NCBI RefSeq assembly: GCF_000020025.1
Contig: NC_010628.1
Coordinates: 6,900,001-6,932,000, forward strand
Origin: Nostoc punctiforme PCC 73102
GTDB lineage: Bacteria > Cyanobacteriota > Cyanobacteriia > Cyanobacteriales > Nostocaceae
Reading direction: 5' to 3'
Length of the DNA: 32,000 bases
Shown piece by piece: positions 5,426 to 30,700 of this stretch. A model generated the notes under the pieces. The model saw only the letters and a program-made list of their open reading frames with translations, did no database searches and was not told where the DNA came from. The position numbers and the translations under genes are program-made. The stretch's first letter is position 1. Every line of letters begins with the position of its first letter.

Positions 5426-7699
5426 ATGAGCAGTCTAGCTATAAATTCATCAGTTGATCTAGCCATTCCGGAATGGTTAAAAAAATGTTTGAAGGAGTCA
5501 TCGACAAGTAACGGCGAAGTAGAAGATGACCGAAGGCATAGTGATGCAGTTTTAATTGGCCGCGCATTTGAATTTGCTTACCAACTGCATCAAGGTCAAT
5601 ACCGCAAATCTGGAGAACCATACATTGCTCATCCCATTGCTGTAGCCGACTTGCTGCATGACTTGGGAGGTAGTGCTGCTATGATAGCAGCTGGATTTCT
5701 CCATGATGTTGTTGAAGATACAGAAGTTACAAGTCAAGAAATTGAAGAACGCTTTGGCGCAGAAGTGCGGCAATTGGTTGAAGGTGTAACAAAGCTTTCT
5801 AAGATCAATTTCACCAGCAAAACCGAAAGCCAAGCCGAAAACTTCCGGCGGATGTTTTTGGCAATGGCGCAAGATATTCGGGTCATTGTGGTGAAATTGG
5901 CAGATCGTTTGCATAATATGCGAACTTTACAATATATGTCAGAGGCCAGCCGCCGCCGCAGTGCCCAAGAAACGCGAGATATATTCGCGCCTTTAGCCAA
6001 TCGCTTGGGGATTTGGCGAATAAAATGGGAACTGGAAGATTTGGCTTTTAAGTATTTGGAACCAGAAGCTTTTCGCCAAATGCAAGAGCTTGTTTCTGAA
6101 AAACGGACGGCGCGAGAAGAGAAACTGGCTAGAGCTACGAACATGTTGCAAGAGCGTTTGCAGCAAGCCGGAATCCGCTTTCAGGATATTAGCGGTCGTC
6201 CCAAGCACCTTTATAGCATTTACCAAAAAATGCACCGCCAGCAAAAGGAATTTCATGAAATTTACGATTTGGCAGCGCTGCGGATTATTGTTCAAAGCAA
6301 TGAGGAATGCTATCGGGCGTTGGCGGTGGTTCATGATGCTTTTCGCCCAATTCCTGGGAGATTTAAAGATTACATTGGGCTGCCAAAGCCTAACCGTTAC
6401 CAGTCGTTGCATACTGGGGTGATTGGACTAACTGGCCGTCCTTTAGAGGTGCAAATTCGGACAATCGAAATGCATCATATCGCCGAGTATGGGATTGCCG
6501 CCCATTGGAAATACAAAGAAACTGGAGGTTCTAGTATTAGCCATTTGACAGGGACAGATGACAAGTTTACTTGGCTGCGACAACTACTAGAATGGCAAAC
6601 CGATCTCAAGGATGCACAAGAATATCTTGATAGTGTCAAGGATAATCTATTTGAAGATGATGTCTATGTCTTCACCCCTAAGGGGGATGTTGTTCCTTTA
6701 AGTCCCGGTTCTACCACTGTAGATTTTGCTTATCGCATTCATACCGAAGTTGGAAATCACTGTTCAGGGGCGCGGGTGAATGGGCGAATGGTGTCTCTGT
6801 CAACGCGACTACAAAATGGCGATATTGTAGAAGTTCTCACTCAAAAAAACTGCCATCCGAGTTTGGATTGGTTGAACTTTGTCAGAAGTTCGGCGGCGAA
6901 ATATCGGATCAAACAATGGTACAAGCGATCGCGCCGCGAAGAAAATGTTGCCCGTGGACGGGAATTGTTAGAAAAGGAACTAGGTAAAACTGGTTTTGAT
7001 AGTTTGCTAAAGTCCGATGCAATGCAGATTGTCGCCGAAAAGTGTAACTACCACAGTGTGGACGATTTACTTGCCGGTTTGGGTTACGGTGAAGTGACAT
7101 TGAACTTGGTGCTAAATCGTTGGCGAGAAGTGGCGAAGGGACAACAACCAGTTTCTACAGTGCCGCCATTTATCCCCAAAGAACCACCTACTACATCAAA
7201 AGCTTTGCGAGATGCCCCTCCAACTACTTCCCGCGCCAGTGATTCGCCTATTGTTGGGGTAGAGGGGTTGGTATATCATTTAGCTGGATGTTGTACCCCG
7301 ATTCCTGGCGAACCGATTATTGGTGTGGTGACGCGAGGTAGGGGGATTTCAATTCATCGCCAAGGCTGCCATAATCTAGAGACTGTGGAATATGAGCGCT
7401 TAGTACCAGTTAGGTGGAACCCAAGCGCCGAAAATAGTGGTCGTCCGCACACGTATCCAGTAGATGTTCAAATTGAAGCCCTTGACCGCGTAGGGGTACT
7501 AAAAGATATTTTGTCACGGTTGAGTGACCAAGGAATCAATGTCCGCCATGCTCAGGTGAAAACCTCTGTTGGTCAACCTGCATTGATGGATTTAGGAATA
7601 GATATACGCGATCGCTCTCAATTAGAGCAAGTATTTGTGCAAATTAAGAAAATGAGCGACATTTTGAATATCCGCCGCGTTGGTCAAATTGACGAATAG
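5426..7699 (+). CDS. spoT: Bifunctional (p)ppGpp synthetase / guanosine-3',5'-bis(diphosphate) 3'-pyrophosphohydrolase (long RSH)
   Basis: A 757-aa ORF. The HD hydrolase motifs are YIAHPIAVA and HDVVEDT. The synthetase region is RPKHLYSIYQKM...YDLAALRIIV...YQSLHT. It also has a TGS domain (VYVFTPKGDVVPL...GSTTVDFAYRIHTEVG) and a C-terminal ACT-like domain. Confidence 0.95.
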   Translation: MSSLAINSSVDLAIPEWLKKCLKESSTSNGEVEDDRRHSDAVLIGRAFEFAYQLHQGQYRKSGEPYIAHPIAVADLLHDLGGSAAMIAAGFLHDVVEDTEVTSQEIEERFGAEVRQLVEGVTKLSKINFTSKTESQAENFRRMFLAMAQDIRVIVVKLADRLHNMRTLQYMSEASRRRSAQETRDIFAPLANRLGIWRIKWELEDLAFKYLEPEAFRQMQELVSEKRTAREEKLARATNMLQERLQQAGIRFQDISGRPKHLYSIYQKMHRQQKEFHEIYDLAALRIIVQSNEECYRALAVVHDAFRPIPGRFKDYIGLPKPNRYQSLHTGVIGLTGRPLEVQIRTIEMHHIAEYGIAAHWKYKETGGSSISHLTGTDDKFTWLRQLLEWQTDLKDAQEYLDSVKDNLFEDDVYVFTPKGDVVPLSPGSTTVDFAYRIHTEVGNHCSGARVNGRMVSLSTRLQNGDIVEVLTQKNCHPSLDWLNFVRSSAAKYRIKQWYKRSRREENVARGRELLEKELGKTGFDSLLKSDAMQIVAEKCNYHSVDDLLAGLGYGEVTLNLVLNRWREVAKGQQPVSTVPPFIPKEPPTTSKALRDAPPTTSRASDSPIVGVEGLVYHLAGCCTPIPGEPIIGVVTRGRGISIHRQGCHNLETVEYERLVPVRWNPSAENSGRPHTYPVDVQIEALDRVGVLKDILSRLSDQGINVRHAQVKTSVGQPALMDLGIDIRDRSQLEQVFVQIKKMSDILNIRRVGQIDE

Positions 7700-9562: not shown

Positions 9563-10609
9563 ATGCCAGTACTTAATATCCTTCATTTAGTTGGGTCTGC
9601 ACACGATAAGTTTTACTGTGATTTATCACGTCTTTATGCCCAAGACTGTTTAGCTGCAACAGCAGATCCATCGCTTTATAACTTTCAAATTGCATATATC
9701 ACACCCGATCGGCAGTGGCGATTTCCTGACTCTCTCAGTCGAGAAGATATTGCTCTTACCAAACCGATTCCTGTGTTTGATGCCATACAATTTCTAACAG
9801 GCCAAAACATTGACATGATGTTACCACAAATGTTTTGTATTCCTGGAATGACTCAGTACCGTGCCCTATTCGATCTGCTCAAGATCCCTTATATAGGAAA
9901 TACCCCAGATATTATGGCGATCGCGGCCCACAAAGCCAGAGCCAAAGCAATTGTCGAAGCAGCAGGGGTAAAAGTGCCTCGTGGAGAATTGCTTCGCCAA
10001 GGAGATATTCCAACAATTACACCTCCAGCAGTCGTCAAACCTGTAAGTTCTGACAACTCTTTAGGAGTAGTCTTAGTTAAAGATGTGACTGAATATGATG
10101 CTGCCTTAAAGAAAGCATTTGAATATGCTTCGGAGGTCATCGTAGAAGCATTCATCGAACTTGGTCGAGAAGTCAGATGCGGCATCATTGTAAAAGACGG
10201 TGAGCTAATAGGTTTACCCCTTGAAGAGTATCTGGTAGACCCACACGATAAACCTATCCGTAACTATGCTGATAAACTCCAACAAACTGACGATGGCGAC
10301 TTGCATTTGACTGCTAAAGATAATATCAAGGCTTGGATTTTAGACCCTAACGACCCAATCACCCAAAAGGTTCAGCAAGTGGCTAAAAGGTGTCATCAGG
10401 CTTTGGGTTGTCGCCACTACAGTTTATTTGACTTCCGAATCGATCCAAAGGGACAACCTTGGTTCTTAGAAGCTGGATTATATTGTTCTTTTGCCCCCAA
10501 AAGTGTGATTTCTTCTATGGCGAAAGCAGCCGGAATCCCTCTAAATGATTTATTAATAACCGCTATTAATGAAACATTGGGTAGTAATAAAAAGGTGTTA
10601 CAAAATTGA
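9563..10609 (+). CDS. mysD: D-Ala-D-Ala ligase-like ATP-grasp enzyme of MAA biosynthesis (adds Ser/Thr to mycosporine-glycine)
   Basis: A 348-aa ORF with Ddl-like ATP-grasp sequence (AAHKARAKAIVEAAGVKVP..., VVKPVSSDNSLGV, LFDFRID...WFLEAG). It is convergent with mysC, exactly as in the N. punctiforme NpF5597/NpR5598-5600 arrangement. Confidence 0.88.
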   Translation: MPVLNILHLVGSAHDKFYCDLSRLYAQDCLAATADPSLYNFQIAYITPDRQWRFPDSLSREDIALTKPIPVFDAIQFLTGQNIDMMLPQMFCIPGMTQYRALFDLLKIPYIGNTPDIMAIAAHKARAKAIVEAAGVKVPRGELLRQGDIPTITPPAVVKPVSSDNSLGVVLVKDVTEYDAALKKAFEYASEVIVEAFIELGREVRCGIIVKDGELIGLPLEEYLVDPHDKPIRNYADKLQQTDDGDLHLTAKDNIKAWILDPNDPITQKVQQVAKRCHQALGCRHYSLFDFRIDPKGQPWFLEAGLYCSFAPKSVISSMAKAAGIPLNDLLITAINETLGSNKKVLQN

Positions 10610-10775
10610 TATTAAAAAAATAAGCGGTGTAAGCCTGCATTCATAAAAGTATAAATAATTACTGCTCTTTTGGAGTGCGGGAGGCGATCGCAGAAAAAAT
10701 CAAGAGCATGGACAAGCTTTTCGCTATTCATGCTCAACAGGTTTACAAATGCCATTTTTGCTTCTTACGAATCAC

Positions 10776-12161
10776 TTAGTCGCCCCCTAATTCCACGAGT
10801 TTACCGATATTAAAATCGATCTTTACCCAACCTTTGAGTCGTTGCAAATTTTGTAGCAAAAGTAAAGTAATCTGCCAATGGTGCAAAGTTAAAAATGGTA
10901 TCGGATCGTCCAGGCGATAAATGGCATCTGTACCTCTGACTAATCTCCCAAACCAAGTTTGTAATTGTTGTCCAGAGCGAATCCCAGTCAATCGCCAGAT
11001 TTCGTGATATATCCAGTAAGTGGGCTTGCTATCTGCAAGAGGTTCCAAAGGTGCAGCTAGAGGAGTTTTACCAAGATAGGCTTCTGCAACACCTGGGTGA
11101 TTGTAGAACATTGTGATCGCCGAATGGGTGCGAGGATTACATTCAATGGCATAAGCTGTACCATCTTCAGCTTGGATAAAGTCAAGAGATATTTGTCCAG
11201 TCAGCCGTAAACTTTTGACGAAATGTTGTACCCATTCTTGAATTTGGGGATTTTCGACATTTTCATAGTTAATCTGAAACGCTGAAGAATTTGAACAGCA
11301 ATGCAACCTTAATTCGCCGTCTCGGACTGTGCTATGGGTGCATAATTCTTTCCCAGGAATAAATTCTTGCATAATCCAAGGTTTTTCTGGGCTGATGGGT
11401 AAACTCTTGACAAACGCTGCTGTCTCTTCTGGGGTATCACAAGGAAGTTTGGTTAAATTTAAGCGGCGAACTGAGTCGTAAGAAATACTCTTAAGAATAT
11501 ATTTGCGCGTCTCTTTACTAAAATCGAAGTTGATAACTTGTTCAGGATCGGTAATTTTAAAAGATTTCGGGGCTGATAAACCAAGCGATCGCGCCCGATC
11601 GGTAAAGGCAAATTTATCATCCAGCATCTTGGTTATATCAGCATCAAAGTGAAAAACCTCACAATATTCTGATAGTGCAGACTTTGCCAAAGAGTCGTAA
11701 TAACTAGCTACAGGGCTGCATACGGGTACATAAACGTCAATCTTCTCTCGTTTGACAATTTCCAATAGCGCTTGGGTATAGCCTTCTGGGTCGTCTTGTG
11801 GTGCAGGAACTGTATAAAAACGACTCACAGAATTTGAGAATCTATGCCCTGATAACCAGTATTTATGACCTTCAATCAGAATAACTCTGTGTCCGGCTGC
11901 ATGGAAGGAGCGGGCAAGTTGCAATGCTTTGGTCATTTTGCCGCCACTGACCAAGATATTCTGGGGATGAGTGGCTACGGCAGGTTTTTTTGTAAACGGC
12001 CTACACATCAGAGATATCAATACTATCAAAGCATTAAGCGGCAAGGCTATCAGCAGTAGTATTAGAGTCCCGATAGTCTTCAGTAGAGCTGCTATTTTTA
12101 GCCTCACACCCTTTGATGGCGTTGTGGATTGAGGAAGAGATAAAGAGATTGATTGTGCCAT
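10776..12161 (-). CDS. mysC: ATP-grasp mycosporine-glycine synthase (4-deoxygadusol + glycine)
   Basis: 461 aa from the ATG at 12161, with AAGGA 8 nt upstream; the track's 12206 start is a GTG. The sequence (SGGKMTKALQLARSFHAAGHRV..., YAIECNPRTHSAIT, IDFNIGKLVELGGD) closely resembles my recollection of Ava_3856/NpR5598. Confidence 0.9.
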   Translation of the reverse strand: MAQSISLSLPQSTTPSKGVRLKIAALLKTIGTLILLLIALPLNALIVLISLMCRPFTKKPAVATHPQNILVSGGKMTKALQLARSFHAAGHRVILIEGHKYWLSGHRFSNSVSRFYTVPAPQDDPEGYTQALLEIVKREKIDVYVPVCSPVASYYDSLAKSALSEYCEVFHFDADITKMLDDKFAFTDRARSLGLSAPKSFKITDPEQVINFDFSKETRKYILKSISYDSVRRLNLTKLPCDTPEETAAFVKSLPISPEKPWIMQEFIPGKELCTHSTVRDGELRLHCCSNSSAFQINYENVENPQIQEWVQHFVKSLRLTGQISLDFIQAEDGTAYAIECNPRTHSAITMFYNHPGVAEAYLGKTPLAAPLEPLADSKPTYWIYHEIWRLTGIRSGQQLQTWFGRLVRGTDAIYRLDDPIPFLTLHHWQITLLLLQNLQRLKGWVKIDFNIGKLVELGGD

Positions 12162-12284
12162 AAATTTTTCCTTGACGTGGAATGCAGTTCTTTTATAGGG
12201 ACACACAGATGTGCGTCCCTACCGGATATTGCATCCAAATGAGAACTGCCATAACATCAGATGCCTTGAATTGAGAAGCGCCTG

Positions 12285-13118
12285 TTATACCAAGCGTCTA
12301 ATCAGGGTTATACCATCTCGTATGGGTAACAGAACTTGCTCTACACGAGGATCTGCGGCGACAATGCGGTTGAATTGAGCGATCGCTTCACCATTGGCTG
12401 TACGCTGTTCTGATGGCAGGTAAACTTGTCCTTGCAACAAAGTATTATCTACACAGATTAATCCGTCGGGAGCTAGTAAATGGCTATCCAAGATAATTTG
12501 GAAGTATTCTATATACTCCTTTTTATCCGCATCAATGAAGATCAGATCAAAGGATTCTTTTTTAGCCACCAGCTTGTGCAGCGTCTCTAGTGCAGGTGCC
12601 ACTTCTACAACAATCTTGCGGCCGTGGGGAGACTCTTGAAAGCAAGTTTGAGCAAACTCGGCCACATAGGAGTCTACTTCACAAGCAATCAGTCGCCCAT
12701 CATCTGGTAACGCCTCTGCCATTGCCAAAGCTGAATATCCTGTGAACATTCCCACTTCTAGGATGCTTTTAGCCTTAGTGATATGCACAAACATCTTTAG
12801 TGTTTGTCCTTCAAGATGTCCTGAGAGCATTTCTTGCTCTAATTGACGCACTGTTTCACCATCACTGAAGCGTTTACTCCAGTCTTCAATGCTTGTCTTC
12901 TGCGCTAGTGCTGTCAATGCGGTCGATTCAGGGGTAGTGCAATCATCCAGATAGGGATCTAAACCTGCTGCTAATTGCAACCCTTGGCGCAGAGAAGTCA
13001 GTATCTCTGAAGGAATATTACTTTCCTCTGCCATTCTGAGGGTTTTTTGTAGCTGTGCTACCAGAATGCTATGTGGCGTTATTGGTCTTGCGGTATCTCG
13101 TCCTAAAATACTGGTCAT
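12285..13118 (-). CDS. mysB: SAM-dependent O-methyltransferase (desmethyl-4-deoxygadusol to 4-deoxygadusol)
   Basis: A 277-aa ORF of the catechol-OMT-like class I fold (ILEVGMFTGYSALAMAEAL, FDLIFIDADKKEY). Its ATG lies 4 nt after the mysA stop. Confidence 0.9.
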   Translation of the reverse strand: MTSILGRDTARPITPHSILVAQLQKTLRMAEESNIPSEILTSLRQGLQLAAGLDPYLDDCTTPESTALTALAQKTSIEDWSKRFSDGETVRQLEQEMLSGHLEGQTLKMFVHITKAKSILEVGMFTGYSALAMAEALPDDGRLIACEVDSYVAEFAQTCFQESPHGRKIVVEVAPALETLHKLVAKKESFDLIFIDADKKEYIEYFQIILDSHLLAPDGLICVDNTLLQGQVYLPSEQRTANGEAIAQFNRIVAADPRVEQVLLPIRDGITLIRRLV

Positions 13119-13122
13119 GTTT

Positions 13123-14355
13123 TCACACTCCCAATAGTTTGGATTCTTCTTGAGTTTCTATGTAAGCGTCAATGCCATCTCCACCACGAGGGTATGTAGC
13201 ACACAGACGTTTGTGTTCAGCTAAAGCTGCATCTAGTTCTTCACGGGTGAAATCGTTGACAAAGAAGCACTCACCAATGGGTTTAGGCATAGCTGCGCGT
13301 TGTTTCCCGTCTCGCGTCAAGCTAATAGATTGGGTAGCATACCAGAGCAAATCGCCATCTAGTAGAGGATGATCGATTGATAAACCTATACGACTCATCA
13401 AGCTCAAAATGCGATCGCGTTCTCCTGATGTAATGTAGCCACGTCTTGCCGCAATAGTTGCAGACAAAGCCATGTCTATATTGACGGCATGACCGTGAAA
13501 CAACGGTATCATCGGAGCTAATTCTAAGGTCGGACTCCAAGTGTGACCGTAGGCAATGACGCGATCGAGGTCTAACTCATGCAAGTTTGGAGTTTCCAAC
13601 TCCAGCATAGTTTTTATTGCCTCGTAATTGAGTTTATGTGCGATCGCTTTCAGTTCCTTTGTACCATTCACATATCCAAAGTGAGTGGAAAGCAACTCTT
13701 CGCCATATTCATACAACAATTCAAAGACTTCAGAGTTCGCCACAACAGCAATTTTGACCAACTCTGCCATCCCATTACGAACTTGAGCCGTTGGTAATGT
13801 TTGCAAGAAGGAGAAATCGAGGATGACTTTCAAAGGAGCATGATATGCACCCAAGCGATTTTTTAACTTGCGATGGTTGACTGCAACCTTAATCGCTACA
13901 CCTGCATCAATCAGACCAATCAGCGTTGTCGGAACCCGAATATAGTTACTCTTACGACGGTAAGCAGCACACGCAAACCCAGCTACATCAGTGGTTAAAC
14001 CACCACCCACTACTAATACTGGTTCCTTGCGGATTAAACCAAAGTCAGAAAAAGCATCAACAATTTTCTCAAAGGTTGCAAGGGTTTTAGTAGGCTCAGT
14101 AATCACAATGGGAACTACGGTCAGATCAATACCATAGTGTCTAAAATATGACTTGATTTGCTTGCCATATAATCTGTTGACATTAGCATCAATCACAGTC
14201 AGACAACGGCCAAACTTCTCATAGCTGTCTGCAATTTCTCTGTTACTGATATCAAATGCACCATTTACATAGACAAGACTAAACTCAATTTTTTCGTAAC
14301 CTTCCACGCGGAATTCAGCTTCCGTTGCTTCAAACGATGCTTGAACATTACTCAT
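13123..14355 (-). CDS. mysA: Desmethyl-4-deoxygadusol synthase (sedoheptulose-7-phosphate cyclase, DHQS-like)
   Basis: A 410-aa ORF of the sugar-phosphate cyclase superfamily ([45 protein letters not shown]). It is near-collinear with the Ava_3858/NpR5600 sequences as I recall them. Confidence 0.93.
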
Positions 14356-14680
14356 TATTATTGACCTTGATAGAATTGAAAAATTTGTGAAAATTCAGGC
14401 AATATTTTAGATTAATCCTGATGTATGGCAATAACAAATCATGCTCATGAACGCTAAAACTTTTAGGCATTCTAAAGCCAGCTTTTACTAGAAAAGCTTA
14501 TTATTATTACCGAGCGATGCCACTAAATAGCACCGTTATTGATCTAAATTCTGTAAGCTAACCTCTAATTTAAGGTTGCCCTAAGACTACTCAACTAGTC
14601 CCATTAAAAATTGATCGTCATAACGCTTGCGCTCTTTTGGGATTGTTGACCTGAATTCGGCAAGTTAACCTTAAGTTTAG

Positions 14681-14724
14681 ATTAACTCTACTATTAACTC
14701 TGCTATATCTATCTATAGATATAG
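14681..14724. promoter_or_regulatory. Direct repeat ATTAACTCT-N3-ATTAACTCT immediately followed by perfect 10-2-10 palindrome CTATATCTAT-CT-ATAGATATAG; candidate regulator binding sites upstream of mysA
   Basis: Read directly from the sequence: the direct repeats are at 14681-14689 and 14693-14701, and the palindrome is at 14703-14724. The sites lie about 330-370 bp upstream of the mysA ATG in a roughly 0.9-kb AT-rich divergent intergenic region. Confidence 0.3.
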
Positions 14725-15281
14725 AGGTTTGACAACTGTTTTAATTCGCAAAATTTCTAACAGAGAAAACTGGATAAATAGTTTATCTCCAAGCTTCCAT
14801 TTAAGATTACAGCCCTGATTAACCTTCAGTTCGCTGTTTTTTAGCATTAGTCTCGAACCTTTTATCGCTAAACTTTCTACACTCTGTTTTACTCAGAGTG
14901 CCAGTGGACTTCTAGTTGATTTTAGTTAACTTTCTGTTCAGTATTTAATATACCAACGTCGGTAACTTTTGAAAACCCAAAATTTTAATTAATCAGAGTT
15001 ACTAATTACACATATCAGTTTAACTCAAGACATGAGTCATTTTATATTTACAAATCTTAAAAAAGAGTTAAATTGGCTTTTTCGTTCAAAATTATAGGAT
15101 TTCAGCTTAAATTAAGAGATGATTTTCTGGTTAGTAACATAAAAAGTGATATGTGTATTCTGCCAAAAGTATATGAAGTGAATATTTTTTTATACTAAAA
15201 GTTGATTCTACCGATGTAGTATATACCTCAGTAATGATGGATGATTAATATTAGTAAGTGTGTGTATTCGTTCTAATCCCT

Positions 15282-15998
15282 ATGCAACAGTTATTTCCCG
15301 GAGAAGTATTCGCCAGCACTGCTGATTTTGACATTGGTATTCGCCAACTGATACCCAGATACGATGAGATGTTGGAGGTAATTACCCGTTGTCTACCTTC
15401 CACAAGTCTGCGGATATTAGAATTAGGTTGTGGTACAGGCGAACTTAGTCTCAAAATACTCAAACGCTTTCCAAATGCCCAAGTAATTGCTCTAGATTAC
15501 TCACCTCGAATGTTACAATTTGCCCAACATAAAATCACAGCATCTGGATATCAAAAACGTTGGGTTGGTACACAAGCAGACTTTGGCGATTGGGCAAATA
15601 ATCCAGAAAAATTAGATATTGGTAGCGAATTTGATGCCTGTGTATCATCCTTGGCAATTCATCATCTCCAGGATGAGATGAAATTAAAGTTATTTAGCCG
15701 AATTGCTGCTAGCCTCACTCAAGATGGCTGTTTTTGGAATGGAGACCCAATTTTACCGGAATCATCAGCCTTAGCAGAAGTTTATCAGGCTGCACGAGAA
15801 GAATGGTCAGTTGAACAGGGAACCAATTTAACAGAGATTCGTGCAAAGCTTGGTGCAAGCAGCACTCAAGGTTACTCTAGTCAAGACCAGCTAGCTAGCT
15901 TAGATACTCATTTACAGATGTTGAGCAAAGCTGGATTTAAAACAGTTGCAGTACCTTGGAAATATTATGGTCTGGCGGTGTTAGGTGGCTGGCTATGA
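15282..15998 (+). CDS. Class I SAM-dependent methyltransferase
   Basis: Motif I is ILELGCGTGELSL, and the post-I acidic residue is in VIALDYSPRML. I prefer the ATG at 15282 over the GTG at 15258. The gene is divergent from mysA. Confidence 0.85.
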   Translation: MQQLFPGEVFASTADFDIGIRQLIPRYDEMLEVITRCLPSTSLRILELGCGTGELSLKILKRFPNAQVIALDYSPRMLQFAQHKITASGYQKRWVGTQADFGDWANNPEKLDIGSEFDACVSSLAIHHLQDEMKLKLFSRIAASLTQDGCFWNGDPILPESSALAEVYQAAREEWSVEQGTNLTEIRAKLGASSTQGYSSQDQLASLDTHLQMLSKAGFKTVAVPWKYYGLAVLGGWL

Positions 15999-16418: not shown

Positions 16419-16558
16419 ATCCGAAAATACAGAGTAGAAAATTTTCTTCAGAAAATAAACCAGGGACACGCAATTTGGATTCGTTTTTCTGCTCCTATCT
16501 CCAGTGGGGTTAGAGCCACTGTTTGCCATCACTTAGTTTTAAAAGGAGAATATCTTGG

Positions 16559-17638
16559 ATGGCTCGAAATAAAAAGAAATCAGCCGGGTTTAAGTATGAG
16601 CATCCACTTGTGTCTAGATGCCCGATTTGTTGTATTATCCCGCCACATATACTAGAACATGTCGTTGTAAATGGCAATCCTCAACAGCGTAATTGGGCTT
16701 TTCGTACATTAAATGTTTCGGCACAATTTCGCGGACGGAGAGATGTCATAGGTACTGTCTCGTTTGCACCTTCTCCAGGTGAAAAGCGTCGCACCATTTA
16801 TGATGCAAAATATGGCCAACAGCTTCCTGGTACATTAGTGCGCGGTGAAGGCGATCCTCCCAGCAGTGATATAGCAGTGAATGAAGCCTACGATGCTGCT
16901 GGTGCAACTTATGACTTGTTTTATGAGATATTCGATCGCAATTCCGTTGACGACAAAGGACTACGTTTAGACTCCACCGTGCATTATGGCGTTAAATATG
17001 ACAACGCCTTTTGGAACGGCGACCAAATGGTTTATGGTGATGGCGACGGAGAAATGTTTCAACGCTTTACGACATCAATTGATGTGATTGGGCATGAGCT
17101 AACTCATGGTATAACCCAATATGAAGCGGGTTTACAATATTATGGCGAACCAGGAGCATTAAATGAATCATTTTCTGATGTCTTCGGTTCTTTGGTGAAA
17201 CAAAAGAGCAAAAATCAGACTGCACAAGAAGCAGATTGGCTGATTGGCGAAGGTCTTTTAGTACCAACTGTTAAAGGTGTTGCCCTGCGATCGATGAAAG
17301 CACCGGGAACAGCTTATGATGATCCAGTAATGGGTAAAGATCCTCAACCAGCCCATGTAAAAGATAAATACACTGGTACTGATGATAACGGTGGCGTGCA
17401 TATCAACTCAGGAATTCCTAACCATGCGTTTTATTTAGCGGCTGTTAGCATTGGTGGCTATGCTTGGGAAAAAGCAGGCAAAATCTGGTACATAGCTTTA
17501 CGCGATCGCTTGAAAGCCAAAGCAGATTTCAAAAAAGCTGCCAGTGTCACCATTCAAATTGCTGGCGAACTCTACGGTAATGGTAGTGATGATCAAAAAG
17601 CTGTACAGGATGCTTGGCAAAAGGTAGGAGTTATCTAG
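16559..17638 (+). CDS. M4 (thermolysin-family) zinc metallopeptidase, protealysin-like (short propeptide, no signal peptide)
   Basis: The zinc site is VIGHELTHG plus GALNESFSDVFG, and GGVHINSGIPNHAFY is also present. The N-terminus is charged and non-hydrophobic and carries IIPPHILEHV, resembling the protealysin propeptide motif. The ATG at 16559 has AAGGAG 9-14 nt upstream; the track's 16523 start is a TTG. Confidence 0.9.
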   Translation: MARNKKKSAGFKYEHPLVSRCPICCIIPPHILEHVVVNGNPQQRNWAFRTLNVSAQFRGRRDVIGTVSFAPSPGEKRRTIYDAKYGQQLPGTLVRGEGDPPSSDIAVNEAYDAAGATYDLFYEIFDRNSVDDKGLRLDSTVHYGVKYDNAFWNGDQMVYGDGDGEMFQRFTTSIDVIGHELTHGITQYEAGLQYYGEPGALNESFSDVFGSLVKQKSKNQTAQEADWLIGEGLLVPTVKGVALRSMKAPGTAYDDPVMGKDPQPAHVKDKYTGTDDNGGVHINSGIPNHAFYLAAVSIGGYAWEKAGKIWYIALRDRLKAKADFKKAASVTIQIAGELYGNGSDDQKAVQDAWQKVGVI

Positions 17639-17806: not shown

Positions 17807-18106
17807 ATGCGGATATCCTTTGAACGCACAGGTGGCTTTGCTGGAATCAGCAAGAAGACAACCGTTGATACAGACACTCTCCCGCCAGATGAAGCTGCCA
17901 CACTTCCCCGCCTGGTGGAAATTGCAGATTTATTTAGGCTACCTGAACTAATTACCTCGCCAAATCCCCAGAGCGATCGCTTTCAGTATAAGTTGACAGT
18001 AGAAGATAACGGCAAGCAGCATACAGTGACTGTCAGTGAAGCAGCATTGCCAGGAACCTTAAGACCACTGATTGAATGGCTGCAAACCGTAGCACAAAAA
18101 AAGTAA
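17807..18106 (+). CDS. Emfourin-like (M4in family) proteinaceous inhibitor of protealysin-like proteases
   Basis: A 99-aa ORF immediately downstream of the M4 protease and co-oriented with it. The N-terminus MRISFERTGGFAGI...VDTDTLPPDEAA matches my recollection of the emfourin family consensus. The size and synteny fit the Serratia protealysin operon. Confidence 0.7.
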   Translation: MRISFERTGGFAGISKKTTVDTDTLPPDEAATLPRLVEIADLFRLPELITSPNPQSDRFQYKLTVEDNGKQHTVTVSEAALPGTLRPLIEWLQTVAQKK

Positions 18107-21751: not shown

Positions 21752-21796
21752 ATTATATAACGGTTTTTTATGAAATCATCTTCAGGAGAAAAGACA

Positions 21797-22594
21797 ATGG
21801 AGAGCTTTAATGAATATCATATAGACCCAAAGCAATTTCCTTTTCTGAAAAATTTTCAAGATAACTGGCAAGTCATTAGAGATGAGTATACAAGCTTTAT
21901 TAATAATGCATCTAATGAGGAATTAAAATTTACTTACGATGTTCTTGGCCCTAAAAGCCAAACCATTAAAACCAAGGGAAAGTCGAAATACAGTGCTTTT
22001 GGTATTTTGTTTCAAGGTATGTTTATTGAAAAATATATTCAGGCGCATCAAATAAAATATCCTGATTATGGGCCAGATGAAGCATCAAAAAAAGCACTGG
22101 TATTAAGAGAGAAATATTTTACGAATTTAGCCAATGTGATAAAAGATGTGAACCTGATTGAGGATGATATCATCAGAAACGTGTATTATGGTACATTTCA
22201 CCCAGGTTTGGATATCAAGCTGCATGTAAACTATAACCCTCATACAAATCGTGGCTATTTAGGATTAATAGTGCCAGAGGGAGATGTGGCTATGAAAATA
22301 TGTCACGATCAACTTTATTGGCATGAAGGAAAATTCTTGGTTTTAGATCATAGCTATCCCCACTGTCCACATAATTACACTAGTTATGATAGAACTGTTT
22401 TGGTTGTAGACTTTTTTAAACCGGATAAACCTAGAGATGAAGTGATCGAATTTGAGAAAGAGCAAGTCACACAACGGATGCAAGATAATCCTTACAGCTT
22501 AGGTGTTTTTGGTAAAAGCGATAAAGCTAAAGAAGAAGATTTTATCAAGTATGGTTTAGCTCATCAATTAGAGTGGGATAAAGCCTTGATTTAA
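21797..22594 (+). CDS. Aspartyl/asparaginyl beta-hydroxylase-family Fe(II)/2-oxoglutarate oxygenase
   Basis: The core HPGLDIKLHVN...RGYLGLIVP...WHEGKFLVLDHSYPHCPHN...RTVLVVDFFKP aligns by eye with the AspH family pattern (PG..I.pH ... L.vP ... W.eG..lvfD.s..H...N ... R.vL..D). The ATG at 21797 has AGGAG 8 nt upstream; an alternative ATG is at 21770. Confidence 0.82.
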   Translation: MESFNEYHIDPKQFPFLKNFQDNWQVIRDEYTSFINNASNEELKFTYDVLGPKSQTIKTKGKSKYSAFGILFQGMFIEKYIQAHQIKYPDYGPDEASKKALVLREKYFTNLANVIKDVNLIEDDIIRNVYYGTFHPGLDIKLHVNYNPHTNRGYLGLIVPEGDVAMKICHDQLYWHEGKFLVLDHSYPHCPHNYTSYDRTVLVVDFFKPDKPRDEVIEFEKEQVTQRMQDNPYSLGVFGKSDKAKEEDFIKYGLAHQLEWDKALI

Positions 22595-22596
22595 AA

Positions 22597-23604
22597 ATGA
22601 ACGTAACAACCTACAGAAAGTTAATAGCAAAGCAACTGAATCAAGATTTTAAATCTGCTATTGAAATTGTCGAAATTCCTCTTTCCAAGCCTGCTGCTAG
22701 TGAACTTGTAATCCAAAACAAATTTGCTGGCGTTAACGGTGGTTTTGACACCTTACTTTGTCGTGGTGACGTTCCATATATTAACTTAATTCCTCCCTTT
22801 GATTTGGGTGTGGAAGCTGTGGGGGAAGTTATCGCTATAGGTGAAAATGTCAAAGATTTTCAAATTGGTGATGCTGTCATAACTACGGCACGTGGTGGCG
22901 GTTATCGAGAATATCAGCTTATCAATGCAAACTTAGCAGTGAAGGTGCGGGAAGCAACACCAGAGTTACTAACACTAATGCCCACGGGTGTATCAGCTTT
23001 GGTTGCATTGGAACAAGTGGGGGAGATGAAAAGTAATGAAGTGGTTTTAGTGACAGCAGCAGCCGGGGGAACAGGCCATATTGCAGTGCAATTGGCAAAG
23101 TTAGCCGGGAATCATGTCATTGGTACTTGCAGTTCTGAAGCGAAGGTAAAGTTATTGAGAGAATTAGGGTGCGATCGCATTATCAACTATCGCACAGAAA
23201 ATCTCAATCATGTCCTCAAGCAAGAATACCCCAATGGGATTAATCTAATTTTTGACTGTGTAGGTAAACAGGTTTTTGATACCTGCGTTGAAAACTTGGC
23301 AATACGGGGACGCTTAATTGTAGTTGGTTTCATCTCCGAATACGCAAAAAATGTAGAGCAAATTACACAACCACGCCTTTATCACCAGCTATTTTGGAAA
23401 GCTGCTTCTGTGAAAGGCTTTCTCATGCCTCATTATAAAGAATATATTGCTGAGGCACGCGATCGCCTATTAAACCTGTTCTACACAGACAAACTCAAAG
23501 TTTCTGTTGACCCAAGCCACTTTAACGGTATAGAATCAATTCCCGAAGCTGTAGAATATCTCTTGCGTGGTCAGAATTGTGGCAAAGTAGTTGTGAGGTT
23601 TTAA
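22597..23604 (+). CDS. Medium-chain dehydrogenase/reductase (quinone oxidoreductase / zinc-independent NADPH-dependent enoyl reductase-like)
   Basis: A 335-aa ORF with the nucleotide-binding motif VLVTAAAGGTGHIAVQLAK and a GroES-like N-domain (GVEAVGEVIAIGENVKDFQIGDAV). Its ATG lies 2 nt after the upstream stop, suggesting translational coupling. Confidence 0.9.
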   Translation: MNVTTYRKLIAKQLNQDFKSAIEIVEIPLSKPAASELVIQNKFAGVNGGFDTLLCRGDVPYINLIPPFDLGVEAVGEVIAIGENVKDFQIGDAVITTARGGGYREYQLINANLAVKVREATPELLTLMPTGVSALVALEQVGEMKSNEVVLVTAAAGGTGHIAVQLAKLAGNHVIGTCSSEAKVKLLRELGCDRIINYRTENLNHVLKQEYPNGINLIFDCVGKQVFDTCVENLAIRGRLIVVGFISEYAKNVEQITQPRLYHQLFWKAASVKGFLMPHYKEYIAEARDRLLNLFYTDKLKVSVDPSHFNGIESIPEAVEYLLRGQNCGKVVVRF

Positions 23605-23743
23605 GTAACACGGTAAGCTGTTGTGCCTTTAATTTGCACTAATATTTCTTTCAATATGATTGTGGGGTGGGCAACATGAGCGCCCTGATAGTGCAAGTTG
23701 TATACGTAACAGCTTATTAGTTGATATTCAGTCAGGGGTGAGA

Positions 23744-24142
23744 ATGACACAAAATTCAGAAAATACTTTAAAAGTTGCTCGACAGGCATTTGAGCATCTT
23801 ACGTATGGTATGGCAACTGGAGAGTGGGAAGCATTGTTAGATATGCTCACAGAAGATTTTACCCTTTGGTTTCCAATGGGTAAATTTCACGGTTTGAATG
23901 TCGGCAAACAGCGAGCTAGAGAATTTTTTGAGTACGTTTTTGAAGCATTCAGTCCTGGTTTGAACCTGACTGGTTTAGACCGTGTTACTAGCAATGAAAC
24001 AACGGCTGTTTTTGAGTTTCGAGATGAGGGACTTTTGTTTGGACAGCTTTACAAAAATCGGGTAGCGGTTTCTTTTGATGTGCGTGGAGACAAAATTTGT
24101 GGCTATAGGGAATACTTTGGCAGCGATGGTAAATCCTATTAA
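23744..24142 (+). CDS. NTF2/SnoaL-like small protein
   Basis: 132 aa from the ATG at 23744, with AGGGGTGAG upstream. The size and pattern (ARQAFEHL...GEWEALLDMLTEDFTLWFP...VAVSFDVRGDKICGYREYF) are typical of SnoaL-like polyketide-cyclase/NTF2 folds. Confidence 0.7.
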   Translation: MTQNSENTLKVARQAFEHLTYGMATGEWEALLDMLTEDFTLWFPMGKFHGLNVGKQRAREFFEYVFEAFSPGLNLTGLDRVTSNETTAVFEFRDEGLLFGQLYKNRVAVSFDVRGDKICGYREYFGSDGKSY

Positions 24143-24796: not shown

Positions 24797-27190
24797 CTAC
24801 TTTGTATTAATCACCATCTGTAAATTTCTTAACAAATCGCTTGAGGTGTAGGGCTTGGACAAAAGGGTTTTGACACTATTACCAAGGATTTTAATCATTT
24901 CATGATTGGAAGCTAATCCACTAACACCAATAATTTTGATCTCTGGATTAATTTTTTTCAACACACTGATGGTTGTTGGTCCATCCATGTTTGGCATCAT
25001 CATATCAACCAAGACTACACTAATTTCTTGTTGATATTCTGTATATAGTGCGATCGCATCAATACCATCACTAGCTACTATAACTTTATAGGCATTTTTT
25101 TCTAACCAGGTTTGAGTAACCTCTCGAATTGAATCTTCATCATCAACAACGAGAATCAATTCTCCATGCCCTGGTGGTAATTCATCTCCAGCTAATTTAC
25201 TATCTGTCTCCATTGTTTGCGTGACGGGTAAGCAAACTTGAAACTCTGTGCCTTTGCCCACGTCAGTCACTACATTCACAAAACCGAAGTGGCTTTTGAT
25301 AATCCCAAGCACTGTTGAAAGACCAAGCCCCGTGCCTTTTCCGACTTCTTTTGTTGTGAAAAATGGCTCAAAAATTCTATCTACTATTTCTCTCTTAATT
25401 CCTATCCCTGTATCACAGACGCTAATCATTACATAAGAACCTACCTTAGCATCAATATTCATTTTGGCGTAGTGACTATCAACCCAGAAATTCTTCGCAG
25501 AAATCTTTAGGATACCGCCATTAGGCATGGCATCACGAGCATTGATACATAGGTTCATTAGCACTTGGTGTAACTGAGTAGCATCACCAAAGATATTCCA
25601 TAAGTTTTGCTCAGAAACATCAATACGGATTTCAATAACTCTAGAAAATGTTTGCTTAATAATATTTTCAATTTCTGAGATTAAATACTGCACCTGTAAG
25701 GTTTTAAAGGTACCTACAGAGCCGCGTGAAAACCACAACACTTGTTTAACTAAATCTGCGGTGCGTTTAACATTTGTTTTCATAATTGTTAACCATTGCT
25801 GACTTTTTTCATCTAGAAGCTGTGCCTCTAAAAGTTGCACTGTCATCAATATAGGTGTTAATGTATTATTAAGAGCGTGGGCGATACCACTTGCTAGAGT
25901 GCCAAGGCTCTCCATTCGCTGGGCGCGGAGAAACTGTGCTTCAAGTAGTTTTTTCTCTGTAATGTCGGAGTTGACAATTAGGACGGATTTAGCTTGTCCC
26001 TCATTATCATTTACCAATGTCCATCGGCTAGCAACGATAATCTCTTTGCCTTGTTTGGTAACTTGATATAATTCACCTTGCCACGAACCATTTTCAACTA
26101 AAGTTTTCTGGATATTTTTTAGTTGTCCAAAACTTTGCTTTCGATACAAAAACTGATTGGCATTCTTGCTCAATGCTTCTTCTGCCATCCAACCGTACAA
26201 ATGTTCAGCTCCTTTATTCCAAAATTGAATTTTGGTAATCAAATCTTGAACGATAATTGCATCTGTGGTGATATCGAGCCAAGCTGCTTGCTCACGAATT
26301 TTTTGTTCTGCATTTTTGCGTTCGCATAGCGCAGCTTGCTGTTCGGTAATATCAATTACAAAACCCGCCATCCGAGCAACTTTACCTGTAGAGTCTAAAA
26401 AGATATAGCCGTTATTTTCAACTGTGATGTAAGTGCCATCTTTACGACCGACGCGAAATTCAAGGTGGAATCGCTCTTTTGCAGATAAAACGCGGTTAAT
26501 CTCTTCATTGAATAATTTTCTATCATCAGGATGAACTAACTCTAACCAACGGTTCAAACCTCCTAACATCTCAGGTATAGAGTAACCTAATATTTGCTCT
26601 AAGTTGCCATCATATTTAATATCGTTGGTATCCAAGTACCAGTCGTAGAGAATCTGACCACTCGCTTGAATTAGTGCTTGGTAGCGATTGTTCCACTCGT
26701 CTAATGCAGCTGAATGACATCGCAGTTCTTCTTCTACTCGCTGGCGCTCAAAGATTTCTATTTCTAAACGTTTATTTTGCTCTGTAAGTTTTTTTGTGAG
26801 GTTCCGTAAACGTAAATGGATATTTACCCTAGCTAAAACCTCTTTATGTTCTAGAGGTTTAGTTATGTAATCTACTGCCCCAAGATTCAAACCTTTGATT
26901 TGATCTATCTTATCGGTTATAGCAGTTAGAAATATTACTGGAATATCCTGAGTGACTAGATTTTTTTTTAAAAGTCTGCAAGTTTCAAAACCATCAATTC
27001 CTGGCATTAATATATCCAATAAGATTAGGTCAGGTAAGGCATTCTCTGCAATTTCAATGGCATTCATTCCATCTTCAGAGACTAAAACCTTCAAACCGTA
27101 ATACTCTAAAAGCTTGAATAATATCTCTAAATTAATAGGGGCATCATCAACTATTAAAATGACATTTTTTTCATCTTTATTAAAATTCAT
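24797..27190 (-). CDS. Hybrid sensor histidine kinase / response regulator (REC - coiled coil - PAS - PAS - HisKA - HATPase_c - REC)
   Basis: A 797-aa ORF. The N-terminal REC has ILIVDDAPINL...DLILLDILMPGIDG. Two PAS-like blocks follow. The H-box is LASGIAHALNNTLTPI, and the ATPase N/G boxes are NLCINARDAM, DTGIGI and GKGTGLGLS. The C-terminal REC has ILVVDDEDSI...VVLVDMMMPNMDG. A GGAGG Shine-Dalgarno sequence precedes the ATG. Confidence 0.92.
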   Translation of the reverse strand: MNFNKDEKNVILIVDDAPINLEILFKLLEYYGLKVLVSEDGMNAIEIAENALPDLILLDILMPGIDGFETCRLLKKNLVTQDIPVIFLTAITDKIDQIKGLNLGAVDYITKPLEHKEVLARVNIHLRLRNLTKKLTEQNKRLEIEIFERQRVEEELRCHSAALDEWNNRYQALIQASGQILYDWYLDTNDIKYDGNLEQILGYSIPEMLGGLNRWLELVHPDDRKLFNEEINRVLSAKERFHLEFRVGRKDGTYITVENNGYIFLDSTGKVARMAGFVIDITEQQAALCERKNAEQKIREQAAWLDITTDAIIVQDLITKIQFWNKGAEHLYGWMAEEALSKNANQFLYRKQSFGQLKNIQKTLVENGSWQGELYQVTKQGKEIIVASRWTLVNDNEGQAKSVLIVNSDITEKKLLEAQFLRAQRMESLGTLASGIAHALNNTLTPILMTVQLLEAQLLDEKSQQWLTIMKTNVKRTADLVKQVLWFSRGSVGTFKTLQVQYLISEIENIIKQTFSRVIEIRIDVSEQNLWNIFGDATQLHQVLMNLCINARDAMPNGGILKISAKNFWVDSHYAKMNIDAKVGSYVMISVCDTGIGIKREIVDRIFEPFFTTKEVGKGTGLGLSTVLGIIKSHFGFVNVVTDVGKGTEFQVCLPVTQTMETDSKLAGDELPPGHGELILVVDDEDSIREVTQTWLEKNAYKVIVASDGIDAIALYTEYQQEISVVLVDMMMPNMDGPTTISVLKKINPEIKIIGVSGLASNHEMIKILGNSVKTLLSKPYTSSDLLRNLQMVINTK

Positions 27191-28026: not shown

Positions 28027-28608
28027 TCACGGGTTTGTAGGGGTATCAGGTTTTATGCGACTCGTCTTAGGACGACAGGGGCTTCCCCAACAAACCTGTC
28101 CAGAAGGCATATTAGTCAAAACAGTACTACGAGCGCCAATCACAGCATTAGCCCCAATTTGCACTCCCGGCCCAACAAAACAATCTGCCGCTACCCATGC
28201 ACCATTGTTAATAGTGATACTCGCTGTTTTTAACCCAAAAGCAGGATCTTGGATATCGTGACTACCAGTACACAGGTAACTTTTTTGAGAAACTACGCAG
28301 TGTTCACCGATGTGTATCCGATCGAGGCTGTATAAAACTACGTTATCTCCAATCCAACTGTAGTTGCCAATAGTAACTTTCCAAGGATAGGTGAAGCGGG
28401 CGGTGGGTCGAATTAATACGCCTTTGCCGATACTAGCGCCAAATAATCGTAGCAAGGCACAACGCAGAATATTTAACGGTTGAGGAGTAAGGGGAAATGC
28501 GATCGCTTGTACAAGCCACCATAACAAAACATACCAGCTTGGCCGCCCCCGATCGAACCAAGATTGGTCATATTTACGTAAATCTACGAAAGGTTGGTCA
28601 TTGGTCAT
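28027..28608 (-). CDS. Hexapeptide-repeat (LbH) O-acetyltransferase, WcaF-like polysaccharide acetyltransferase
   Basis: A 193-aa ORF with an N-terminal hydrophobic segment, followed by left-handed beta-helix repeats (IGNYSWIGDNVVLYS, INNGAWVAADCFVGPGVQIGANAVIGARSTV). Confidence 0.85.
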   Translation of the reverse strand: MTNDQPFVDLRKYDQSWFDRGRPSWYVLLWWLVQAIAFPLTPQPLNILRCALLRLFGASIGKGVLIRPTARFTYPWKVTIGNYSWIGDNVVLYSLDRIHIGEHCVVSQKSYLCTGSHDIQDPAFGLKTASITINNGAWVAADCFVGPGVQIGANAVIGARSTVLTNMPSGQVCWGSPCRPKTSRIKPDTPTNP

Positions 28609-28635
28609 TGGTCATTTGTCATTAGTTATTTATCA
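28594..28635. repeat. STRR array TTGGTCA x3 then TTTGTCA/TTAGTTA/TTTATCA, overlapping a start codon and a stop codon
   Basis: Read directly from the sequence. The acetyltransferase ATG (complement of 28606-28608) and the upstream GT2 stop (28633-28635) both lie inside the array. Confidence 0.9.
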
Positions 28636-29589
28636 GGAATCAATGGTTAATAGCTTTACATCTGTTCCTCTGTTCCCCTGCTCGCCTGCTTCTTCCTTTG
28701 GAGTAGTTGCAGTATTTAAGTGACCACCACAGCTGCGTAATTCGTAAAGTTTAACGCCAATTTGATATTCATATTGACTCAGCAAGCGTGCATAAATATA
28801 TCCGGCTTTGCCATCCAAAAACCCGCGTTGAATTATATAAAATAAAACAAACCGTAGAAAGGGTTTAAATGGCAGGTGTACCCAGACTTTTTTCAAAAAG
28901 CGCTTGCGTTGCACTGCATCACCAAAGAGATTTGCGCCGATGGTACCGCTATCATCTTTACCTGTGAGAGTATTAAAATAAACGCTGGCTTCCCAGTTGG
29001 AATAACGGTTATGACGTTCTAACCAGTGATAAAGGTCGCGGAAGTCTTCGTGGAGCATATCATTTTTGAGATACCCAACTTTGCCCTGCAAAATCACATG
29101 TTCGTGAACTTCGTTGTCACCAGTATTAGGAATATCTTCTGTATGTAGATTTTCGTAGCGGCCTTTTTTATGCTGAAATAAACGGAGATTCCAATCGGGA
29201 TATTTCCCACCATAGCGAATCCATTTTCCTAAGAAAAATACGCGGCGGTTGAGATAATAACCTGTATATTCTTCATTTTGAATTGCTTGGTCAATTTCTT
29301 CCCAAAGTTCTGGGGTGATGCGTTCATCGCAATCTACAATTAGCACCCATTCGTTACGGAAAGGGAGATTATCTAAAGACCAATTTTTCTTTTTAGGCCA
29401 GCGTCCATTGAAGTTGAATTGCACGACATTGACACCGTGACTTTTCGCAATTTCAATGCTGTTGTCGGTACTTTGAGAGTCTACTACAAATATTTCATCT
29501 GCTCTGCTGACGCTAGCGAGGCAGGCTGGCAGGTTTGCTTGTTCGTTTTTTGCTGGAATTAGTACTGAAACTGGTATTTTAGATGACAT
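28633..29589 (-). CDS. Family 2 glycosyltransferase
   Basis: The sequence VSVLIPAKNEQANLPACLASV...IFVVDSQSTDNS...VLIVDCDERI carries GT-A/DxD signatures. The C-terminal tail (EEAGEQGNRGT...) is encoded by repeat-like sequence. Confidence 0.88.
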   Translation of the reverse strand: MSSKIPVSVLIPAKNEQANLPACLASVSRADEIFVVDSQSTDNSIEIAKSHGVNVVQFNFNGRWPKKKNWSLDNLPFRNEWVLIVDCDERITPELWEEIDQAIQNEEYTGYYLNRRVFFLGKWIRYGGKYPDWNLRLFQHKKGRYENLHTEDIPNTGDNEVHEHVILQGKVGYLKNDMLHEDFRDLYHWLERHNRYSNWEASVYFNTLTGKDDSGTIGANLFGDAVQRKRFLKKVWVHLPFKPFLRFVLFYIIQRGFLDGKAGYIYARLLSQYEYQIGVKLYELRSCGGHLNTATTPKEEAGEQGNRGTDVKLLTIDS

Positions 29590-29609
29590 AACAGTATAAA
29601 TCTTAGTGA

Positions 29610-30542: not shown

Positions 30543-30700
30543 AGATTTTATTTTGGATTTGAGATATGGGACTTCGGCTCCGCTCAGTCGAACGATTTTA
30601 GATAAAAATCTTAAATCCAACGCACACCTGCTGAGAGTTAATCTAAACCAAAAATTACCGACCCACCAACCGAGTTTCTTCGGAAATAATCTTTAAAACT

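Follow-up and report, generated by a model that had tools for sequence, protein, structure and literature searches.

A reference MysD-type mycosporine-like amino acid cluster of Nostoc punctiforme and a conserved small open reading frame in front of mysA

Which sunscreen pathway is encoded by the four adjoining genes at positions 9563-14355 of a 32,000-nucleotide (nt) stretch of Nostoc punctiforme PCC 73102 DNA (NC_010628.1, 6,900,001-6,932,000), and does this locus hold anything besides its four enzymes? We call the whole stretch the window, and all coordinates below are window positions. The locus is almost certainly the MysD-type mycosporine-like amino acid (MAA) cluster NpR5600, NpR5599, NpR5598, and NpF5597. 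That four-gene cluster has already been characterized and is the reference MysD-type cluster in the reference strain. The cluster in itself adds nothing new, being the reference sunscreen pathway that has already been used for heterologous shinorine production, and the only element of the locus that might be new is a small open reading frame (ORF) upstream of mysA. The MAA cluster of N. punctiforme ATCC 29133 was reportedly described by Gao and Garcia-Pichel in 2011, whose results are known to us through secondary sources (PMC3901267, PMC10666671, and PMC10384724). Our own analysis covers the gene positions, the protein families, the signature residues of the cyclase (demethyl-4-deoxygadusol synthase, DDGS), the specificity residues of MysD, and the identity of the proteins to characterized ones, and the products of the cluster are taken from published experiments. 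The four enzyme genes are given here in pathway order.

13123-14355, minus strand: mysA (NpR5600), 410 amino acids (aa); demethyl-4-deoxygadusol synthase (sedoheptulose-7-phosphate cyclase), by identity to ACC83905.1
12285-13118, minus strand: mysB (NpR5599), 277 aa; S-adenosylmethionine (SAM)-dependent, cation-dependent-type O-methyltransferase, by Methyltransf_3 and identity to ACC83904.1
10776-12161, minus strand: mysC (NpR5598), 461 aa; ATP-grasp ligase adding glycine to C3 of 4-deoxygadusol, by identity to ACC83903.1
9563-10609, plus strand: mysD (NpF5597), 348 aa; Ddl-like ATP-grasp ligase, by Dala_Dala_lig_C and identity to ACC83902.1

An earlier note made from the letters of the DNA (the sequence-only reading) had placed four ORFs here, and the ORF list returns the same coordinates, strands, and lengths, with mysC read from its internal ATG. 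Its likening of the locus to the N. punctiforme cluster turned out to be an understatement: the locus is NpR5600-NpF5597 itself. An exact-sequence look-up found MysA, MysB, MysC, and MysD to be 100% identical to ACC83905.1, ACC83904.1, ACC83903.1, and ACC83902.1, respectively. ACC83902-ACC83905 are consecutive GenBank accessions from N. punctiforme PCC 73102 / ATCC 29133, and the strands of the genes, three reverse and one forward, agree with the literature tags NpR5600, NpR5599, NpR5598, and NpF5597. Because the four proteins are identical, the accessions consecutive, and the strands in keeping with the NpR and NpF tags, the window contains the model cluster and not a relative of it. At the DNA level, five assemblies made from public sequencing runs match the window with 100% identity over 5.5-15.6 kb.

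In the pathway expected from these four enzymes, MysA would cyclize sedoheptulose-7-phosphate to demethyl-4-deoxygadusol, which MysB would O-methylate with SAM to give 4-deoxygadusol. The ATP-grasp enzyme MysC would then phosphorylate 4-deoxygadusol and add glycine at C3 to yield mycosporine-glycine. In the fourth step, MysD would attach an amino acid at C1 of mycosporine-glycine, mainly serine to form shinorine, with threonine giving porphyra-334 and glycine giving mycosporine-2-glycine as predicted minor products. Published expression work bears this out. In E. coli, NpR5600-5598 led to mycosporine-glycine, and adding NpF5597 led preferentially to shinorine (PMC3901267). The yeast Yarrowia carrying the N. 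punctiforme genes produced 4.1 mg/L shinorine and 0.4 mg/L porphyra-334 (PMC10614408), and mycosporine-2-glycine, shinorine, and porphyra-334 are tabulated in a review as products of the N. punctiforme cluster (PMC10384724). Support for the sedoheptulose-7-phosphate step of MysA likewise comes from the literature on the identical protein set, which yields mycosporine-glycine and shinorine (PMC3901267, PMC10614408).

How these genes are likely to be transcribed can be read in part from their spacing. A single mysABC transcript is suggested by the junction between the mysA stop and the mysB start, which is a gap of only 4 nt (13119-13122), and by the mysB-mysC spacer of 123 nt. The joint rise of mysA, mysB, and mysC (22-, 14-, and 4-fold) in a published N. 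punctiforme RNA-seq comparison that does not list mysD (PMC7660261) points the same way. Folding of the RNA of the spacer beyond mysC gave a possible end point for this transcript.

10691-10735, minus strand: terminator-like hairpin, GAGCAUG...CAUGCUC and then UUGAUUUUUU, about 40 nt past the mysC stop

The arms occupy the region 10735-10704 on the minus strand with the U-run UUGAUUUUUU after them, and the hairpin, which is not among the results of a consensus terminator scan, is likely the end of the mysABC transcript. The genes mysA, mysB, and mysC would then constitute one operon ending at this hairpin, and mysD, which is convergent and lies 166 nt from mysC, would be transcribed separately from the opposite strand. 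The small ORF and a conserved leader upstream of mysA, both described below, would form part of the operon's control region.

This layout raises the question of whether the native host has two separately controlled outputs, such that some stresses induce mysABC without mysD and mainly mycosporine-glycine, an antioxidant or osmolyte, accumulates in place of shinorine. Being inverted relative to mysABC, mysD must have its own promoter, and among the 80 related loci from species-representative genomes that we compared, only 8 share the convergent arrangement. RNA-seq of an alkane-overproducing N. punctiforme strain showed mysA, mysB, and mysC up 22-, 14-, and 4-fold, and mysD is not listed (PMC7660261). 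However, the absence of a gene from a published table is weak evidence. Reviews also cite UV-B-related shinorine work in the N. punctiforme strain. On balance we regard two such outputs as unlikely, and they would refine the explanation of the locus as a shinorine-type MAA cluster and not replace it.

A second alternative concerns the cyclase. DHQS, EEVS, and DDGS have one fold in common, and MysA has the DHQS-like two-domain architecture, with N-terminal and C-terminal DHQ_synthase domains (PF01761, E 3e-30; PF24621, E 3e-16). Models of the aroB type also match it weakly, below their cut-offs (TIGR01357, 188 bits versus a cut-off of 305). If MysA were an EEVS or a true DHQS, the cluster product would be gadusol, an aminocyclitol, or a shikimate intermediate and not an MAA. 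The sequence-only reading had staked its call on the cyclase not grouping with true DHQS or EEVS, and this check was run. A phmmer search of all PDB sequences scored MysA at 683 bits against 5TPR, the A. variabilis MysA/DDGS, at 265 bits against 4P53 (EEVS ValA), and at no more than 113 bits against any DHQS. The alignment to 5TPR is 74% identical across 404 residues and gapless, and for this reason the 5TPR numbering can be transferred to the window protein. The active-site signature is Glu254/Ala268/Thr347 in DDGS and Leu267/Asp281/His360 in EEVS (PMC10666671, after Osborn et al. 2017), and MysA carries E254, A268, and T347. By bit score, by identity, and by these three residues, MysA groups with DDGS, and the UniRef name of ACC83905.1 is demethyl-4-deoxygadusol synthase. 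In addition, MysA is identical to NpR5600, whose cluster gives mycosporine-glycine and shinorine, and it is followed by MysB, MysC, and MysD with no fused methyltransferase-oxidoreductase (MT-Ox). These tests rule out an EEVS or DHQS identity, and we attach next to no probability to it.

No evidence that we found contradicts the assignment to the MysD-type MAA clusters. Some points do weigh against the fuller account given above. An A. variabilis mysA deletion strain still produced MAAs, and inhibitors of the shikimate pathway reduce MAA levels (both reviewed in PMC10666671), which leaves some doubt about the carbon source in vivo. The operon, its terminator, and its promoter are putative, and the promoter and terminator scans returned counts at or below the shuffled expectation, so that they served as a pointer only.

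The second and third enzymes raise fewer difficulties. MysB matches Methyltransf_3 (PF01596) with an E value of 5e-57 and is a class I cation-dependent-type O-methyltransferase encoded straight after mysA. MysC scores 569.5 bits against the ATP-grasp model NF005315/PRK06849, which has a cut-off of 406, and it is 75% identical at 100% coverage to Ava_3856 of T. variabilis ATCC 29413, a biochemically characterized glycine ligase. The longest mysC ORF spans 10776-12206 and would encode 476 aa from a GTG, and an internal ATG at 12161 gives 461 aa. The predicted start is better placed at the ATG, because the resulting N-terminus MAQSISLSL is conserved in homologues and the upstream extension is not, and ACC83903.1 is also 461 aa long. 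No solved structure of any MysC relative was found, and the AlphaFold2 model of MysC has a predicted local distance difference test (pLDDT) score of 59, too low for fold searching.

MysC also has a strongly hydrophobic N-terminal segment at about residues 20-55, where Kyte-Doolittle means over 19 residues reach 2.85. All MysC1, MysC2, and MysC3 homologues examined, Ava_3856 among them, share the motif F-[KQ]-[TN]-L-G-T-L-x-L-L-L-x-A-L-P-x-N-x-x-I-V-L-x-S-L-L, and the NCBIfam MysC model spans only residues 64-457. A segment of this kind suggests a membrane anchor. We found no discussion of it in the literature.

MysD is the enzyme of the fourth step. It contains Dala_Dala_lig_C (PF07478, E 1e-21), falls far below every NCBIfam Ddl and Van cut-off (at best 105.7 versus 243), and has Ddl and Van ligases as its nearest, distant, solved structures (E 4e-16 or weaker). 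From these scores it is predicted to have the Ddl fold without being a bona fide Ddl. The suggestion that 9563-10609 is an ordinary cell-wall D-Ala-D-Ala ligase merely adjoining mysABC, which could appeal to those structural relatives and to the opposite strand of the gene, is negligibly probable and is ruled out by the wide shortfall against every NCBIfam Ddl cut-off, by identity to NpF5597, the converter of mycosporine-glycine to shinorine, and by linkage to mys genes, since homologues 73-98% identical to it have mysC or mysB as a neighbor in the majority of the 80 loci compared. Product preference has been traced by mutagenesis of NpF5597 itself to two omega-loop residues, with L249/A257 favoring shinorine and F/S favoring porphyra-334 (PMC11983340). 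The MysD of the window carries L249 and A257, the shinorine-preferring pair, and therefore shinorine is predicted to be the main product, in agreement with the published data for NpF5597. The sequence-only reading had proposed shinorine and/or porphyra-334, which is right and is now sharpened to mainly shinorine by this residue pair and the published products.

That reading had also assigned the fourth step to MysD and not to MysE, and the gene content of the window agrees. No MysE-type gene for an A-T-TE protein resembling a nonribosomal peptide synthetase (NRPS) was found in the window, which has no ORF longer than 797 aa and no AMP-binding or PP-binding domain in its called genes. A PhyH-type (PF05721) MysH gene was likewise not found between or beside mysA-D or elsewhere in the window, and palythine-type products are therefore not expected. 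The nearest hydroxylase gene, at 21770-22594, is 7.4 kb off; it belongs to PF05118, a different family from PhyH, and does not accompany the mys genes of other loci.

With the four enzymes accounted for, attention turns to the DNA in front of them. The region upstream of mysA is a 902-nt AT-rich spacer, and blastn aligned most of 14361-15144 to the mysA-upstream regions of many Nostocales loci. The conserved features of this spacer are the following.

14713-14847, minus strand: small ORF (MLKNSELKVNQGCNLKWKLGDKLFIQFSLLEILRIKTVVKPLYL), 44 aa, with its ATG at 14847 and its stop at 14713, on the mysA strand and 357 nt upstream of mysA
14356-14712, minus strand: conserved noncoding leader between the small ORF and mysA, with many alignment columns at least 90% identical across 54 loci
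14848-14915, minus strand: conserved stretch upstream of the small ORF, found in alignments, with a conserved TAAGG that resembles a Shine-Dalgarno site and ends 10 nt ahead of the ATG

The product of the small ORF is an exact match to RefSeq WP_272913937.1, a hypothetical protein annotated in N. punctiforme. In 54 of 64 related loci containing mysA, nhmmer recovered the block 14778-14915 at an almost constant distance from the mysA start; a profile match to the small ORF is present in 54 of these 64 loci, and the ORF is intact, at 41-58 aa, in 52. Its stop lies a median of 335 nt from the mysA ATG (range 267-451). The pattern of variation is that of a gene. Entropy at the three codon positions is 0.40/0.34/0.73, with variation concentrated at third positions, and the fraction of codon differences that are synonymous is 0.37 in frame versus 0.18 and 0.09 in the other two frames. 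By these measures 14713-14847 behaves as coding sequence, and the conserved block is predicted to be coding. Upstream of the ATG, conservation extends for about 70 nt and is poor farther out. The small ORF occurs once in the window. Many related loci (L011-L085) have a second, shortened copy of 22-25 codons (for example MQKNSEMRINHACNIKCQPGDRQ) at about -800 to -650 relative to mysA, which stands upstream of the intact one.

Two broad searches were made for this family. A profile search of 5.8 billion proteins returned 45 clusters, all of 43-63 aa and without a Pfam domain, with named members from heterocystous cyanobacteria. Nearly all of these carry the name "hypothetical protein"; one is called an rRNA methyltransferase and one is a UniRef "Transposase". 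When 1.84 billion representatives were searched exhaustively with HMMER, only 18 matches came up at E ≤0.001. Of these, 16 are 41-73 aa long, one is a protein of 106 aa, and one is a weak match to part of a 1,740-aa protein. The core N-x-G-[CS]-N-L-K-x-K-x-G-D is common to the short matches whose sequences were inspected. Genomic context was obtained for seven further members. Six stand in front of mysA (in Fischerella sp. CENA71, a plasmid of Nostoc sp. NIES-2111, a Trichormus metagenome-assembled genome, two metagenome contigs, and one sequencing-run assembly), and the seventh lies at a contig end. The family was not found in most loci whose MysA is 70-76% identical. Pfam, NCBIfam, PDB, and Rfam gave no match for the small ORF, and its AlphaFold2 model, built from 46 sequences, is a single helix with a pLDDT of 61 and a predicted template modeling score (pTM) of 0.27, too poor to interpret. 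Apart from the two weak longer matches, the small ORF appears from these searches to represent an orphan family that stands in front of mysA wherever the context is legible. The MAA papers that we read, among them PMC10666671, PMC10510106 (on the UHCC 0926 cluster), and PMC13131328, do not mention it, and an earlier description elsewhere is possible. The last of these papers, on OrrA/Dsp1 regulation, speaks of a "five-gene mys cluster", and the five are enzymes.

We suspect a regulatory role for the small ORF. Its constant orientation, its near-constant spacing, and the conserved leader of about 335 nt that runs to the mysA ATG suggest a connection with mysA expression. Within that leader lies the region's best sigma-70-like site (TTGCCA, 16 nt, and TAAAAT at 14431-14404), and such sites are no more numerous than expected by chance. 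Our proposal, for which we see about an even chance, is that a fifth conserved component belongs to the MysD-type MAA clusters of Nostocales, namely a 41-58-aa protein with its own Shine-Dalgarno-like site, at a near-constant distance upstream of mysA and with a conserved leader after it, which may be either a cis-acting leader peptide or a small trans-acting regulator coupling mysABC to ultraviolet (UV) or osmotic signals. The small ORF may encode a cis-acting leader peptide because its best-conserved C-terminal motif, R-x-R-T-[VI]-G-K-P-L (R-N-R-T-[VI]-G-K-P-L), is followed by 0-16 variable residues, and such a motif with a variable tail resembles arrest peptides that hold a proline-containing motif in the ribosome. 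The classical attenuation version of this idea is weakened, since no attenuator-like structure with covariation was found. Alternatively, the ORF may encode a small trans-acting protein, which would explain its conservation over the full length and its own ribosome-binding site.

A riboswitch or other structured RNA was considered as the cause of the conservation in the 902-nt spacer and was rejected. Rfam gave no match in the spacer upstream of mysA at the gathering score and none at E values up to 1. RNAalifold yielded no consensus structure upstream of mysA except one invariant 6-bp hairpin without covariation, and a hairpin upstream of the small ORF is unsupported across loci.

The small upstream gene may be of modest importance. 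How cyanobacteria regulate MAA synthesis is poorly understood, and OrrA has been called "the only characterized prokaryotic regulator" of it in a 2026 paper (PMC13131328). The small ORF and its leader are a concrete and cheap target for studying the switch-on by UV-B or desiccation, and constructs built from "the four genes" alone omit both.

Several flanking genes were considered as cluster members and set aside. The genes for the SpoT/RelA, CNNM, 246-aa methyltransferase, M4 peptidase, and emfourin proteins are syntenic with the cluster in the five closest relatives only. The 757-aa RelA/SpoT-family (p)ppGpp synthetase/hydrolase (5426-7699, plus strand) lies two genes from mysD, with synteny in the closest relatives only. 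The 246-aa class I SAM methyltransferase (15258-15998, plus strand) is divergent from mysA and is started by other gene callers at 15282 (238 aa); its synteny is likewise confined to those five relatives, and the methyltransferase found near the mys genes of the NIES-2111 plasmid is not a homologue of it. The protealysin-like M4 metallopeptidase gene (16523-17638, plus strand; Peptidase_M4, M4_C, and a weak PLN_propep match) precedes a 99-aa emfourin-family gene (17807-18106, plus strand; PF20242, E 1.6e-28), and the two genes appear to form a protease/inhibitor pair. Farther out, 7.4 kb from mysA, 21770-24142 on the plus strand contains co-directional genes for the PF05118 Asp/Asn beta-hydroxylase-family oxygenase, a zinc-type alcohol dehydrogenase/quinone reductase, and a SnoaL-like protein, which may be a small tailoring cassette. 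A 797-aa hybrid sensor kinase with two receiver domains, PAS domains, HisKA, and HATPase is encoded at 24797-27190 on the minus strand, and adjoining it, at 28027-31510 on the same strand, are a hexapeptide transferase gene, two family-2 glycosyltransferase genes, and a 269-aa ORF.

Comparison with other mys loci places the window among the less common layouts. Among the 80 related loci, 39 are colinear mysABCD, 22 are mysAB-D-C-C, and 8 have a convergent mysD, a minority made up of the five closest relatives and three others. No convincing inverted repeats were found that would explain the inversion of mysD; only short AT-rich pairs are present (for example, 14-nt arms at 9033 and 10649), and these are probably due to chance. 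A MysE-type cluster, Ava_3858-3855 of Anabaena (Trichormus) variabilis ATCC 29413, was reportedly described by Balskus and Walsh in 2010. It has the mysA-mysB-mysC order and the first-three-step chemistry in common with the window, and its MysA and MysC are 74% and 75% identical to those of the window. It differs in that a gene co-directional with mysABC encodes MysE, an NRPS-like protein of 888 aa with AMP-binding, PP-binding, and thioesterase domains, whereas the window has a Ddl-like MysD on the opposite strand, and it has no homologue of the small upstream ORF. The colinear Nostocales mysA-B-C-D clusters, some of them of the Nostoc linckia NIES-25 type with MysH, have four enzymes 73-90% identical to those of the window and have the small ORF about 335 nt upstream of mysA. 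Their mysD is on the mysABC strand and some have a PhyH gene between mysC and mysD, in contrast to the window, which has none. The Nostoc flagelliforme-type mysA-B-D-C2-C3 clusters resemble the window in MysA and MysB (86-89% identical) and in the presence of the small ORF and leader, but they have two extra MysC paralogues where the window has a single mysC, and their MysD is only about 74% identical. Their products are ornithine-linked multi-core MAAs, and they are subject to OrrA/Dsp1 regulation (PMC13131328). The N. punctiforme ATCC 29133 cluster has the same proteins in the same order and orientation as the window, with no difference in the four genes.

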